In this document: positions 40,185-44,577 of the stretch, one piece after another
Layout of the letters: each line of letters begins with the position of its first letter
How positions within the stretch are numbered: position 1 is the first letter of the stretch
NCBI GenBank assembly: GCA_964453345.1
Contig: CAYVOC010000009.1
Coordinates: 1-45,309, forward strand
Length of the DNA: 45,309 nucleotides
Direction of reading: 5' to 3'
From: an uncultured Aquificales bacterium
Lineage (GTDB): Bacteria > Thermosulfidibacterota > Thermosulfidibacteria > Thermosulfidibacterales > Thermosulfidibacteraceae
Made by a program: the position numbers and the translations under genes
The notes under the pieces: generated by a model
Told to the model about the DNA's origin: nothing
Database searches by the model: none
Seen by the model: the letters and a program-made list of their open reading frames with translations, nothing else

Positions 40185-40598
40185 TCAGGGGCGGGTCCCG
40201 CCCCTTTCCTCCATACACCTGATAACATCTCTGTCCATGCTTTCAACCTCTTCCGTCTGGGCATAGGCACACAGAAGACAGTCAACAAAGTCTATTTTCT
40301 TGTGCGAAAATATGTGCAAAGCTTCTATTACCGTTTCTTCATCTTGAGTGTCTACGTAGGGATTTTCTAAAAGCTTTATCAGAGCTTCTGAAATCTTGGG
40401 GCGTTCTATTTTGTAGAGTTTAGCCAAAACATATACCGCTTCTGCTATAACTGACTGGAGTATAAATACGTGTTTGTTATGTTCAAAAGCTTGTAAAAAA
40501 GTATTCAGGGCTTTCTCATAAAGTTCTTGATGGTCTTTAAGAAGTATTCTTAGAATAATGTTGGTATCAACTATGATCCTTCGCCTTTGAAAAGGCAT
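40185..40598 (-). CDS. PIN-domain (VapC-like) toxin
   Basis: IVDTNIILR, VIAEAVYVL, DFVDCLL, SMDRD acidic residues; AT-rich. Confidence 0.9.
   Translation of the reverse strand: MPFQRRRIIVDTNIILRILLKDHQELYEKALNTFLQAFEHNKHVFILQSVIAEAVYVLAKLYKIERPKISEALIKLLENPYVDTQDEETVIEALHIFSHKKIDFVDCLLCAYAQTEEVESMDRDVIRCMEERGGTRP
40187..40208. terminator. GC-rich hairpin between convergent xre and nrd/TA transcripts
   Basis: AGGGGCGGG-T-CCCGCCCCT followed by TTC. Confidence 0.65.
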
Positions 40599-40755
40599 CT
40601 TTTAAAACTTCCTTTTCAAGCAGTAGAATTTTCTCCGCATCAGCATCTTTAAATCCATAATCTTCGAGGATTCCCGCCACTTCCTCTAAGAAATGTTTTG
40701 CAGCTTTTGAAGCATTAGTATTATTTTTTTCTTTTATGGACTGAACCTTCACCAC
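40567..40755 (-). CDS. Putative antitoxin, possibly N-terminally truncated
   Basis: Small AT-rich ORF overlapping the PIN gene start; LEEVAGIL segment; purine-rich SD before GTG. Confidence 0.65.
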   Translation of the reverse strand: MVKVQSIKEKNNTNASKAAKHFLEEVAGILEDYGFKDADAEKILLLEKEVLKDAFSKAKDHS

Positions 40756-40767
40756 TCTCTCCCCCTT

Positions 40768-41451
40768 TCACCTAATAATAACCTCTCCCACCCTACCCTT
40801 CAAAATACGGGCGAGTTTTTCCATTTCTTCTCGGGTATAGGGATGGATGGTCCCGTAGGATGGATCAAGGGTTCCCCAGTTGGGGATAAATTTCTGTATC
40901 GCCACCCTCTTTACACCGTCAAGCACAGGCAGAAGAGCAAGCAAGCTATCTTCGTCCACCAGCGGGGGAACAGCCGTTATCCTTATCTCATACTCGCCGC
41001 TCCAGCTCTTCAGCAGGTCTATGCTTTCCTCTACGGGTTCCCAGCTTCCCCTTAGCAAATGATACCTGTCCGGAGAGGTCTTCACATCCAAGGCCACATA
41101 ATCCACCACACCCAAAAGCTCCTTCAGCCTTTCAGGGTAGCTTCCGTTCGTGTCCACCTTTGCAAGAAGCCCCAAGGCCCTCGCCTCAAGGCACAACCTT
41201 TTAGTCAGATCAGGATGTAGAAGAGGCTCCCCTCCGGTTACGACGATGGCGTCTATAAATCCTCGTCTTTTGTTCAACTCCTTAACCACATCCTCAACTG
41301 CTATGTCCGGAAGGGCTTTAACCCTATCTGGCAGAACCAGATCAACATTGTAGCAGTAGGGGCAGCGGAGGTTGCAACCGCCTAAGTAAACAACGGCCGC
41401 AACCCTGCCCGGATAATCCACAAGGCTTGTGCCGCGAAAACCCTTTATCAA
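40768..41451 (-). CDS. nrdG: Anaerobic RNR activating enzyme (radical SAM)
   Basis: SLVDYPG, GCNLRCPYCYN, TGGEP, DTNG, DVK. Confidence 0.95.
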   Translation of the reverse strand: MIKGFRGTSLVDYPGRVAAVVYLGGCNLRCPYCYNVDLVLPDRVKALPDIAVEDVVKELNKRRGFIDAIVVTGGEPLLHPDLTKRLCLEARALGLLAKVDTNGSYPERLKELLGVVDYVALDVKTSPDRYHLLRGSWEPVEESIDLLKSWSGEYEIRITAVPPLVDEDSLLALLPVLDGVKRVAIQKFIPNWGTLDPSYGTIHPYTREEMEKLARILKGRVGEVIIR

Positions 41452-41612
41452 AGGCTGTTTATCCTAACGTAGCGTCTCTCTTTGAATTCCTGCTTTTTGC
41501 CAATATTCCAGTTGCTCACAGGCCTGTAATAGCCCACCACCCTCGAATACACCTCGCAGGGAACAGCTATCGCCCGGACCTTGCGCCCTTCCCTTTCCTT
41601 AACTGCCCGCAT
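41448..41612 (-). CDS. Stand-alone glycyl-radical domain of class III RNR (54 aa; absent from ORF track)
   Basis: MRAVKEREGRKVRAIAVPCEVYSRVVGYYRPVSNWNIGKKQEFKERRYVRINSL; SD GAGGAGG 6 nt before ATG; stop overlaps the nrdG start (TTGA). Confidence 0.92.
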   Translation of the reverse strand: MRAVKEREGRKVRAIAVPCEVYSRVVGYYRPVSNWNIGKKQEFKERRYVRINSL

Positions 41613-43692
41613 TTTCAACCTCCTCTATTATCTTTATTGCCCCTTCTTCATAACGGGACAAGCTCTCCGCATCTATTTCAGCCTCCACCCCATAGCGCTT
41701 CAGATCCTCCTCCGTGTGCCTGTAGGGACAGAACTGATACTCTCCCGGAATATACCCGTGCACAGGGCACACGGAAAAGGTGGGGGTTATGGAAAAGTAT
41801 GGTATCCGGAAGTTGGTAACGATTTTCCTCACAAGGGTCTTGACCACCTCTCCACTGGGTATCTCTTCCCCCACAAAGAGATGCACCACCGTGCCCCCGG
41901 TAAAGAGTATCTGCAAATCGTCCTGATGACTCAAAAGCTCGTATATATCGTCTGTCCAGTTGACAGGCGGATGGACGGAGTTGGTGTAATAGGGGGCATC
42001 GTCCGTTCCCGCAGTTCTTATGCGCGGGAACCTCTCCTTGTCCTTCCTCGCCAGCCTGTAGGAGGCGCCCTCCGCCGGGGTTGCCTCCAGGTTATACATG
42101 TTGCCGGTCTCCTCCTGGAAGTCGGCTATCCTTTCCCTCATGAAGTTGAGCACCTTTATGGCAAATTCCTTGCCTTCGGGGTCTGTTATGGGAACCCCCA
42201 AGTAGTTGAGGCACATCTCGTTCATCCCCAGAACCCCTATGGTGGAGAAGTGGTTGGTCCAGTAGGCGCCTGTTGCCTCCTTTATCCTTGACAGATACAC
42301 CTTGGAGTAGGGATAGAGTCCCTTCTCCGTGAAGTCCTCTATAACCTTGCGCTTTATCTCCAGGGAGACCTTTGCAAGCTCCATGAGGTGGGAGAGTCTG
42401 TCAAAGAAGTCCTCCTCGCATGTGGCAAGATAACCAATTCTTGCCATGTTTATGGTGACCACTCCCAGGGAGCCTGTGAGGGGCGCTGCACCGAACAGCC
42501 CTCCCTGGCGCTTTTTGAGCTCTCTGTTGTCCAAGCGGAGCCTGCAGCACATGCTCCTTGCGTCTTCCGGGGACATATCCGAGTTCACGTAGTTGGCAAA
42601 GTAGGGGATTCCGTATCTTCTTGTCATCTCCCACAGGGGCTCCAGGGCTGGATTGTCCCAGTCAAAGTCCCGCGTGATGTTGTAGGTGGGTATGGGGAAG
42701 GTGAAGATTCTTCCCTTGGCGTCTCCCTCTATCATGAGTTCGCAGAAAGCCCGGTTTATCATGTTCATCTCTTCCTGGAAGTCGCCGTAGGTTTCGTCCT
42801 GAAGCTCTCCGCCCACCACCACGTTGGCGTTTTTGAGGTTCTCCGGTGGCGAAAGGTCCATGGTGATGTTGGTGAAGGGGGTCTGGAAGCCAACTCTTGT
42901 GGGCACATTCAGGTTGAATAGAAACTCCTGAAGGGCCTGCTTCACCTCCTTATAGGAAAGTCCATCCGCTCTAACAAAGGGGGCAAGGAGGGTGTCAAAG
43001 TTGCTGAAGGCCTGGGCACCCGCCGCTTCCCCCTGGAGGGTGTAGAAGAAGTTCACTATCTGTCCCAAAGCGGTTCTGAAGTGCTTTGCGGGTTTGCTCT
43101 CTATTTTGCCGGGAACCCCCCCGAAGCCCCTGAGAAGCAGGTCATACAGATCCCAGCCCACGCAGTAGGGTCCTAAAATTCCCAGATCGTGGATGTGGAA
43201 GTCCCCGGACTCGTGAGCCTCGCCTATCTCAGGGGGATAAAGCTTGGTGAGCCAGTATTTGGCTACTATGCTTGAGGATATGTGAAAGTTCAATCCCTGC
43301 AGAGAATAGGTCATGTTGGAGTTTTCGTTCACCCTCCAGTCGGCCTTTTTGAGGTAATCTTCCACTATGTTGACGCCGTTTACTATGGCCTTGCTTATCT
43401 CCCTCGCCTGCCTTCTGCGCTCTCTATACAGGATGTAGGCCTTTGCTACTTTAGCGTGGCCGTGCTCTATGAGCACCTTCTCCACTATGTCCTGTATCTC
43501 TTCCACATGGGGGATGTTGCCCTTTTTGAAGAAGGTTCTGTAAAGGATCAAAGCCACCTCATCCGCCAGCTCCTCAGCCCTTTTCCTGTCAGAGCCACCA
43601 ACGGCCTTGGCAGCCTTGAAGATGGCTTCAACTATCCTGTTTCTGTCAAAGGGAACAATTTTACCGTCTCTTTTCCTTACCAAGGGTTCCAT
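41599..43692 (-). CDS. nrdD: Class III ribonucleoside-triphosphate reductase, catalytic chain lacking the glycyl-radical motif
   Basis: ATP cone (VRKRDG), HIHDLG, PYCVGW, SMCCRL, EATPAE, YYTNS, TGGTVVH, CPVHGY. Confidence 0.96.
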   Translation of the reverse strand: MEPLVRKRDGKIVPFDRNRIVEAIFKAAKAVGGSDRKRAEELADEVALILYRTFFKKGNIPHVEEIQDIVEKVLIEHGHAKVAKAYILYRERRRQAREISKAIVNGVNIVEDYLKKADWRVNENSNMTYSLQGLNFHISSSIVAKYWLTKLYPPEIGEAHESGDFHIHDLGILGPYCVGWDLYDLLLRGFGGVPGKIESKPAKHFRTALGQIVNFFYTLQGEAAGAQAFSNFDTLLAPFVRADGLSYKEVKQALQEFLFNLNVPTRVGFQTPFTNITMDLSPPENLKNANVVVGGELQDETYGDFQEEMNMINRAFCELMIEGDAKGRIFTFPIPTYNITRDFDWDNPALEPLWEMTRRYGIPYFANYVNSDMSPEDARSMCCRLRLDNRELKKRQGGLFGAAPLTGSLGVVTINMARIGYLATCEEDFFDRLSHLMELAKVSLEIKRKVIEDFTEKGLYPYSKVYLSRIKEATGAYWTNHFSTIGVLGMNEMCLNYLGVPITDPEGKEFAIKVLNFMRERIADFQEETGNMYNLEATPAEGASYRLARKDKERFPRIRTAGTDDAPYYTNSVHPPVNWTDDIYELLSHQDDLQILFTGGTVVHLFVGEEIPSGEVVKTLVRKIVTNFRIPYFSITPTFSVCPVHGYIPGEYQFCPYRHTEEDLKRYGVEAEIDAESLSRYEEGAIKIIEEVENAGS

Positions 43693-43753
43693 TTTCTGAC
43701 CTCCAAGGTCATATTTACACTGAAAGTAATAGCACAGCCGTATTGACCGGTCA

Positions 43754-43801
43754 ACACTAAATATAGTGTTGAAACCACCAGCGAAACACTACATTTAGTG
43801 T
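43754..43801. promoter_or_regulatory. Tandem NrdR boxes
   Basis: ACACTAAATATAGTGT (43754-43769) and ACACTACATTTAGTGT (43786-43801), 32 bp apart, upstream of nrdD. Confidence 0.9.
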
Positions 43802-43811
43802 TAATAGACCC

Positions 43812-44162
43812 TTAGCGACCCCTATAGATCTTTTTTACTTTTAAGGGGTCCACCTCGCCGTGATCCAAGAGCCTTGGAGGGGAGTCTTTGCTGAAGATAA
43901 CGTAGGTGAGATCGTAGGCAGAGGTGTGGAAGCGCTTGTGGGTTGTGGCCCTGCAGGGATACTTTGCCCTTTTTCCGCAGCGCCCCTTGTATACACGACC
44001 ATCTGGGGAGACAAAGTAGACTAACCTATCGCCTGAGATTCTGACAAACGGTTTGTAAAAACAACTCTTAGAAGAGCAAATATACAGCCAGCCGCTTTCC
44101 CCTGCAAAGGCTGAAGAAAAGAGGAACAGGAGGCAGCACAAAAGTATGCGCCGCCTCCCGAT
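43812..44162 (-). CDS. Hypothetical secreted protein; start uncertain
   Basis: Fills the gap downstream of rpsI; signal-peptide-like RRRILLCCLLFLFSSAFA; four Cys in the mature part. Confidence 0.55.
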   Translation of the reverse strand: MGRRRILLCCLLFLFSSAFAGESGWLYICSSKSCFYKPFVRISGDRLVYFVSPDGRVYKGRCGKRAKYPCRATTHKRFHTSAYDLTYVIFSKDSPPRLLDHGEVDPLKVKKIYRGR

Positions 44163-44169
44163 GAATACC

Positions 44170-44562
44170 CTATCTCTTCCTCCACTGGAATCCTCTTCTT
44201 GCCTTGTGGCGCCCATACTTCTTTCTCTCAACGATACGGGCGTCCCTGGTGAGAAGCCCGGCCTTCTTAAGCACAGGCCTCAAGCTTTCGTCGTAGGCGA
44301 GCAGAGCCTTGGCGATCCCATACCTTATGGCGTCAGCCTGGCTGGAAACGCCGCCACCCTTCACGTTCACCTTGATGTCAAATTCTCCCACCTTGTTCAC
44401 CAGCTCTAAGGGCTCAAAGATGAGCTTTCTGAGGGATTCCCTGGGAATATACTCCTCAAGGGTGCGCTTGTTTATAATTATCTGGCCGCTTCCGGGCTTC
44501 ATCCAGATCCTTGCTATGGAGGTCTTCCTCTTTCCAACACCGTGATAAATCACATCCGCCAT
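44170..44562 (-). CDS. rpsI: 30S ribosomal protein S9
   Basis: [30 protein letters not shown]. Confidence 0.98.
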
Positions 44563-44577
44563 CTGACTCACCTCTCC

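Follow-up and report, generated by a model that had tools for sequence, protein, structure and literature searches.

A class III ribonucleotide reductase locus with the radical glycine on a separate 54-residue open reading frame in Thermosulfidibacterota

Here, we describe a class III ribonucleotide reductase (RNR) that is encoded in two pieces, with the radical glycine residing on a 54-residue peptide of its own and not on the catalytic chain NrdD. The locus lies on the minus strand of a 45,309-nucleotide (nt) stretch of DNA from an uncultured heat-vent bacterium of the Thermosulfidibacterota, analysed at its full length and hereafter called the window (GenBank assembly GCA_964453345.1, contig CAYVOC010000009.1). 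An earlier note made from the sequence alone had proposed that the radical glycine is carried by a separate, independently translated subunit, and this proposal has held up: the peptide is conserved and under purifying selection, it belongs to the sole RNR found in the genome, and it is modelled as a complex with the large chain. We consider it very probable that this is a genuine two-subunit class III RNR, in which the nrdD-nrdG system depends on the peptide as an obligate third component, and we infer that the two pieces assemble, that Gly27 of the peptide is activated and that the assembled enzyme is catalytically active.

The nrdD gene (41599..43692) encodes a chain of 697 residues comprising an ATP-cone, the catalytic barrel, the finger-loop motif MCCR (M381, C382, C383), a predicted zinc ribbon (C642-x2-H645 ... 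C655-x3-H659) and, at its end, an acidic tail of 38 residues. Its ATG (43692) follows a ribosome-binding site, GGAGG, at 43700..43704 (7 nt 5' of the start), and its translation ends in ...EEVENAGS. As the earlier note had stated, the R-x-x-G-Y motif is absent from this chain, which is seen both in the translation and in profile coverage that stops short of it. The motif, in the form V-V-G-Y, is carried by a small open reading frame (ORF) at 41448..41612, running from ATG 41612 to the stop TGA at 41450-41448, and its glycine is residue 27 (codon 41534-41532). This ORF is shifted +1 relative to nrdD, overlaps its end by 14 nt (41612-41599), and encodes a basic head (residues 1-18, net +4) followed by the conserved loop bearing Gly27. 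A strong ribosome-binding site, GAGGAGG (41619..41625), lies within the 3' end of nrdD and is separated from the small ATG by 6 nt. Downstream, the TGA stop overlaps, within the sequence TTGA, the TTG start (41451) of nrdG (40768..41451), which encodes a radical S-adenosylmethionine activase of the NrdG2 type with 227 residues. The position and frame of the ORF, its ribosome-binding site, the overlap and the coupling had all been read correctly in the note. The same 4-nt stop/start overlap with nrdG is found in loci L001-L004, L006 and L007 of the comparative set described below.

Together, the two products cover the family profiles in a complementary manner. Against the 562 positions of Pfam NRDD (PF13597), the large chain aligns at positions 1-528 (E 4.5e-180, 600.4 bits, cut-off 26.2) and the peptide at 533-560 (36.9 bits, same cut-off); against the 684 positions of NF006126, the large chain aligns at 5-655 (1055.8 bits, cut-off 548) and the peptide at 650-682. 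The large chain also matches TIGR02487 (508.5 bits, cut-off 326.35) and the nrdG product matches TIGR02495, NrdG2 (156.4 bits, cut-off 131.15). The last 31 or so residues of NrdD and the first 17 or so of the peptide are without a counterpart in the family profile, and a Pfam scan of the peptide returned PF13597 only, with no match to PF01228. Among 30 aligned large chains, M381, C382 and C383 are invariant, and MCCR is described as the NrdD finger-loop motif with the radical cysteine (PMC9669993). In the peptide, E20, R24, G27, Y28, R30, P31, V32, N36, G38, K39, E42, F43 and R46 are invariant among 30 sequences. With regard to class III membership, the barrel profile is thus matched above its curated cut-off, the finger-loop cysteine is present and the cognate NrdG follows immediately downstream; the glycyl-radical motif is not on the barrel polypeptide. 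Putative zinc ligands are C642, H645, C655 and H659, the fourth being His where fused relatives have Cys.

The two-piece NrdD is the only ribonucleotide reductase found in this near-complete genome (completeness 99.92%). A profile search of the genome returned no second NRDD match and no match to the class I/II catalytic domain PF02867, for which 12 of 14 control genomes were positive, nor any to the glycyl-radical domain of the pyruvate formate-lyase type (PF01228). Upstream of nrdD, a distal (43786..43801) and a proximal (43754..43769) palindrome, 32 bp apart centre to centre, match a 16-nt palindromic pattern exactly; the window has these two matches, and none of 100 shuffles yielded two. 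The pattern would fit the NrdR box consensus, and the two could be NrdR boxes in tandem; an nrdR gene is located on another contig of the genome (L106; TIGR00244, 199.4 bits, above the cut-off).

The earlier note had asked whether the split and its ribosome-binding site are conserved among relatives, and had cautioned that the arrangement may not be unique. The caution was right: the split is widespread across lineages. Across 31 split loci, start codon and ribosome-binding site persist. Within the phylum of the window, sampled as one order with 3 families and 7 genera, the peptide is present in 18 of 18 genomes, and the 19 matches all fall in open frames 53-158 residues long. This lineage includes Thermosulfidibacter, and the complete genome of the isolate Thermosulfidibacter takaii ABI70S6 holds a 53-residue 'conserved hypothetical protein' with 73% identity to the peptide. 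In the order of Thermodesulfobacterium hveragerdense, 52 of the 61 sampled genomes have a match, and all 58 matches are in frames of 57-195 residues, none of them long; cultured carriers are T. hveragerdense DSM 12571 and T. thermophilum DSM 1276 (L027, L031). For comparison, we gathered the best 80 of 543 confirmed matches from a species collection and 19 loci from relatives, and in this set 88 loci have a recognisable NrdD core (53 fused and 35 split, with 31 distinct small sequences). Further split carriers include Caldimicrobium, WOR-3, Hydrothermota, Hippea, one Anaerolineales genome and one Woesearchaeota genome. Additionally, a search for short proteins gave 119 clusters of 29-95 residues, every one labelled NRDD in Pfam. 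Many small subunits of Thermodesulfobacteriales and of some Thermosulfidibacter relatives end in a C-x-C tail (L046, L051, L015, L028, L030, L108, L110, L111), which may be a redox-active cysteine pair; the peptide of the window has no such tail.

A prediction of the complex, as suggested in the earlier note, scored the large chain with the peptide at 0.87 in all three runs, and the best of 3 controls at 0.00; of the solved complexes, 58 of 80 reach the mark that we applied, as do 2 of 110 mismatched pairs. The runs agreed in at least 89% of contacts, with a predicted local distance difference test (pLDDT) value of at least 78 for the partner and an interface of 221-242 contacts. In the model, peptide residues 17-22 form an added strand that pairs with zinc-ribbon residues 639-642 and 652-655, residues 9-30 and 34-54 contact barrel segments and the tail (663-690), the Gly27 loop is placed in the barrel, and the basic head rests against the large chain's acidic tail. 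The enzyme most probably works as follows. The large chain would contribute the ATP-cone, the zinc ribbon and the barrel, including the cysteine finger loop, and the peptide, translated from its own start, would dock into the large chain and add the glycyl-radical loop. Hydrogen abstraction from Gly27 would fall to NrdG, whose translation is coupled to that of the peptide directly before it, and the radical would then pass from Gly27 to the finger-loop cysteine and drive reduction of ribonucleoside triphosphates as in one-chain NrdD.

Several observations weigh against this two-subunit reading. The passing score of the complex may reflect model memory of the solved one-chain structures 4COI, 4U3E, 1H78, 8P23 and 9D3X, in which case it would report likeness and not binding. 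Cysteines 382-383 of the finger loop are absent from the confident contact list of the complex model. When the large chain was modelled alone with AlphaFold2, the mean pLDDT was 83.2, with values below 50 at the finger loop (382-402) and the tail (680-697), and the tail helix (675-696) likewise fell below 50. In the predicted zinc site, the fourth ligand appears to be His (C-x3-H) instead of Cys. Finally, all 7 loci of the window's own family have the +1 overlap, so that translational frameshifting is excluded there only by the lack of a shared slippery sequence and by analogy with other families.

Comparison of fused and split forms places the break between the zinc ribbon and the glycine loop. 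Fused relatives read C-P-x-H-G-Y ... C-P-x-C, followed by 3-5 residues and the loop C/T-E-V-Y-S-R-V-V-G-Y. Split forms keep the first three putative zinc ligands, and the fourth is replaced (C-P-x-x-H) in 30 of 31 loci. Tail and head are opposite in charge: the large-chain tail has a net negative charge in 30 of 31 loci (-8 in the window), and the peptide head a net positive one in 28 of 31 (+4 in the window). The cysteine preceding the loop, C19, is V or T in two families and is thus not a zinc ligand. A fused gene from Anaerolineae (L039) combines the C-P-x-x-H motif with a 14-residue linker and is sister to the split locus L086 (Shimodaira-Hasegawa-like approximate likelihood ratio test support 99), which suggests that linker growth preceded fission, although the tree is unrooted.

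This tree, made by a quick method from a 440-residue segment, holds 87 rows after one of 88 was removed as a duplicate, and it requires at least 4 changes between fused and split states on well-supported branches. A count of 6 changes is unreliable on account of the long branches L041, L099, L044, L051, L039 and L019; some of these probably stem from inteins in the segment, and L051 is almost certainly misplaced. Judging from these sequences, we conclude that the split arose more than once, although the long branches weaken the count. Other kinds of split were seen in four unrelated genomes: in L019 (genome G034) and L105 (G040), the break follows a C-x2-C ribbon, and the radical subunits of G021 (L104) and G025 (L020) are about 126 residues long. 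Large NrdD ORFs of about 980-1040 residues were noted in L026, L031, L037, L038, L039, L044 and L051; inteins probably lie inside these ORFs, which distort the tree.

How the split is to be understood is a separate matter, and the best-supported alternative to a functional role is neutral gene fission, to which we give a little short of an even chance. It holds that an insertion at the hinge joining zinc ribbon and glycine loop led to a fixed heterodimer acting as a one-chain NrdD, without benefit and with a peptide that is never exchanged. The genome of the window has a single copy of the peptide gene, the ORFs overlap or are closely spaced and coupled to nrdG, which suggests that both products are made in roughly equal amounts, the interface in the model is large (221-242 contacts), and a fused gene with a short linker of 14 residues and the C-P-x-x-H motif as sister to a split one (L039 and L086) is what would be expected if the linker grew first. 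On the other hand, the split has been kept in 18 of 18 and 52 of 61 genomes, with none of 77 matches in a long frame, and it arose repeatedly: the well-supported branches of the tree require 4 changes or more, and L019 has a split of the C-x2-C type. The acidic tail and the basic head are recurring features, and orphan copies of the peptide occur outside nrdD loci, including one within the packaging module of a phage.

The orphan copies bear on the idea, put forward in the earlier note, that the peptide is a replaceable part. Oxygen cleaves glycyl-radical enzymes at the radical glycine (PMC12288474). Cleavage here would cost only the peptide, which makes the idea reasonable: oxygen would destroy the peptide alone, leaving an 80-kDa body that a fresh peptide could restore. 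A role of the peptide as a cheap, replaceable radical carrier would be plausible. In a stronger form, the peptide would be a diffusible and exchangeable cartridge that is charged by NrdG off the enzyme, docks, and is replaced after oxygen cleavage, with phages bringing their own copy to the same socket; this we regard as doubtful.

Circumstantial support for a spare part comes from orphan copies, double matches and an additional domain in Patescibacteria. In a relative from the same order (G015), an orphan copy at L103:3051-3224 (G015:C117) is flanked by the genes for the large subunit of a terminase (phrog_38, E 4.7e-93) and for a portal protein (phrog_113, E 3.9e-82), a position that marks it as phage- or prophage-borne. 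Two peptide matches are present in 6 of the 61 genomes of the Thermodesulfobacterium order; these extras include three orphans off nrdD (L109 in G082, L110 in G091, L111 in G089) and one second whole split locus (L107). As to the surroundings of these three orphans, one is beside genes resembling 2-oxoacid:ferredoxin oxidoreductase by residue motifs and two are on short contigs. In Patescibacteria, a one-chain NrdD with its own glycine motif is followed by an extra ORF of 95-105 residues and then by nrdG (L036:1018-4215; also L034, L042, L048, L050, L052, L057). The extra ORF consists of a zinc ribbon and a glycine loop (PF13597 positions 510-562, E 8.4e-13) and is a putative GrcA-style additional radical domain for NrdD. 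Against the spare-part idea, the genome of the window has one peptide copy, translation of the peptide is coupled to that of its neighbours, and the modelled interface is large. A tblastn search of the peptide against 50,697 phage records returned only 3 weak partial matches, and no PHROG family was matched, so that the curated phage collections contribute little here.

A conventional NrdD could also be restored during translation, if programmed +1 frameshifting or stop-codon readthrough fused both ORFs, which we consider very improbable. The small ORF does overlap the nrdD end in the +1 frame in 7 of 7 loci of the window's family, and in 8 of the 31 distinct split loci both ORFs are in frame with a stop between them. 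Across the 31 loci, however, the relative frame differs by lineage (+1 in 19, +2 in 4, same in 8), the distance from stop to start ranges from a 26-nt overlap (-26) to a 49-nt spacer (+49), and the overlaps have no sequence in common. The stop of the large gene varies between TAA, TGA and TAG, and is likewise mixed in the in-frame cases (TAA 4, TAG 3, TGA 1). What persists is the start site: 30 of the 31 small ORFs begin with ATG, and 27 have GGAG or GAGG in the 15 nt upstream, with G-runs in the other 4, as counted by eye from a table of the loci. In the window, moreover, the frame of the small ORF holds 6 stop codons upstream. As frame, stop and spacing vary while start codon and ribosome-binding site persist, programmed frameshifting is ruled out, and the conserved element is a start site and not a recoding signal.

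To a sequencing or assembly error, or a decaying pseudogene, we give next to no credence, even though the genome assembly is of metagenomic type and consists of 64 contigs. The earlier note had named an indel at the junction of nrdD and the small ORF as what would undo the split. Contigs from 4 public runs of 4 studies, one of which may be the window's own source, span 41300-41900 and agree without any inserted or deleted letters listed, with contigs X5, X2 and X6 differing from the window by substitutions only. In the frame of the small ORF, the 60 codons preceding its start contain the 6 stops, so that the two ORFs could be fused only by an indel within a stretch of about 30 nt. Further, the split occurs in complete genomes and cultured strains, and nrdD here is the sole RNR found in the genome. 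The 33-codon core of the peptide is under purifying selection, with 12-15 nucleotide changes, 0-2 residue changes and a ratio of nonsynonymous to synonymous substitution rates (dN/dS) of 0 to 0.025 relative to three relatives, to which the estimate is limited as pairs farther apart are saturated. Post-translational ligation of both chains by a split intein or other trans-splicing, although each of them has additional residues at the break (38 and 18) and large ORFs of about 980-1040 residues in several relatives probably hold inteins elsewhere in the gene, has hardly any claim to be right, as Pfam shows NRDD and ATP-cone alone in the large chain and NRDD alone in the small one, and the extra pieces range over 9-49 and 7-26 residues with no conserved junction residues.

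The nrdD-nrdG locus is flanked in the window by genes of other kinds. Directly downstream of nrdG, a PIN-domain gene (137 residues, PF01850, E 3.1e-12; 40185-40755, minus strand), together with an overlapping upstream ORF of 62 residues, looks like a toxin-antitoxin pair of the VapBC type. On the other side, an ORF of 139 residues without a Pfam match (43812-44231, minus strand) lies between rpsI (44170-44571) and the nrdD promoter region.

To our knowledge, glycyl-radical enzymes are regarded as single chains that are lost once oxygen cleaves the radical glycine, with GrcA for pyruvate formate-lyase as the sole known remedy. If the peptide were indeed an exchangeable cartridge, this would be the first class III RNR that can be repaired, and the spare-part principle would for the first time extend beyond pyruvate formate-lyase. 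As a natural class III RNR with a separate radical loop of about 50 residues, it would also be the sole source of deoxyribonucleotides for whole thermophilic lineages. The split makes it possible to address the action of the activase on a free loop, the departure of the radical domain from the barrel for activation, and the exchange of carriers. In this regard, a subunit of 54 residues can be synthesised chemically with isotope labels at chosen atoms, and thus offers a handle for electron paramagnetic resonance and other mechanistic work on NrdD. As regards genome annotation, peptides of this kind are listed as hypothetical proteins, and the large genes may be mistaken for truncated ones. No description of a two-gene NrdD was found in the full-text literature searched; subscription journals, RNRdb notes and supplements were beyond reach and may hold one.

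Among known systems, the closest is the one-chain NrdD with NrdG, as in phage T4 (1H78) and Thermotoga maritima (4COI, 4U3E) and in 8P23 and 9D3X, with which the split enzyme has in common the ATP-cone, the barrel, the finger-loop cysteines, the predicted zinc ribbon, the sequence of the glycine loop and NrdG; fused one-chain relatives have 53-60% identity with the large chain of the window. Where the one-chain enzyme has 3-5 residues from C-x2-C to the loop, the window has an acidic tail of 38 residues, then a stop and a second start, and a basic head of 18 residues, and the fourth zinc ligand is predicted in C-x3-H and not C-x2-C in 30 of 31 split loci. The comparison with GrcA (YfiD) made in the earlier note stands in so far as both are small stand-alone proteins with a radical glycine. 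YfiD is a small autonomous radical-glycine 'spare part' of pyruvate formate-lyase that is activated by the activase of its parent, and a 2026 review gives formate lyases as the only glycyl-radical enzyme class with spare-part proteins (PMC13450708). The likeness fails in descent and in the parent: GrcA belongs to the Gly_radical family of the pyruvate formate-lyase type (PF01228) and the peptide to NRDD alone, and GrcA coexists with a full-length enzyme bearing its own glycine, whereas the large chain here has none, which would make the peptide an obligate subunit and not a spare. The split class II RNR of Pseudomonas aeruginosa, NrdJa/NrdJb, likewise consists of two polypeptides from adjacent genes (PMC4520616), and differs in RNR class, in break point and in having no stored protein radical on either piece. 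In class I RNR, the stable radical is likewise kept on a separate small subunit, beta, and passed to the catalytic one, alpha (PMC9669993); beta is an unrelated, ferritin-like protein with a metal or tyrosyl radical, depends on oxygen and employs long-range radical transfer.

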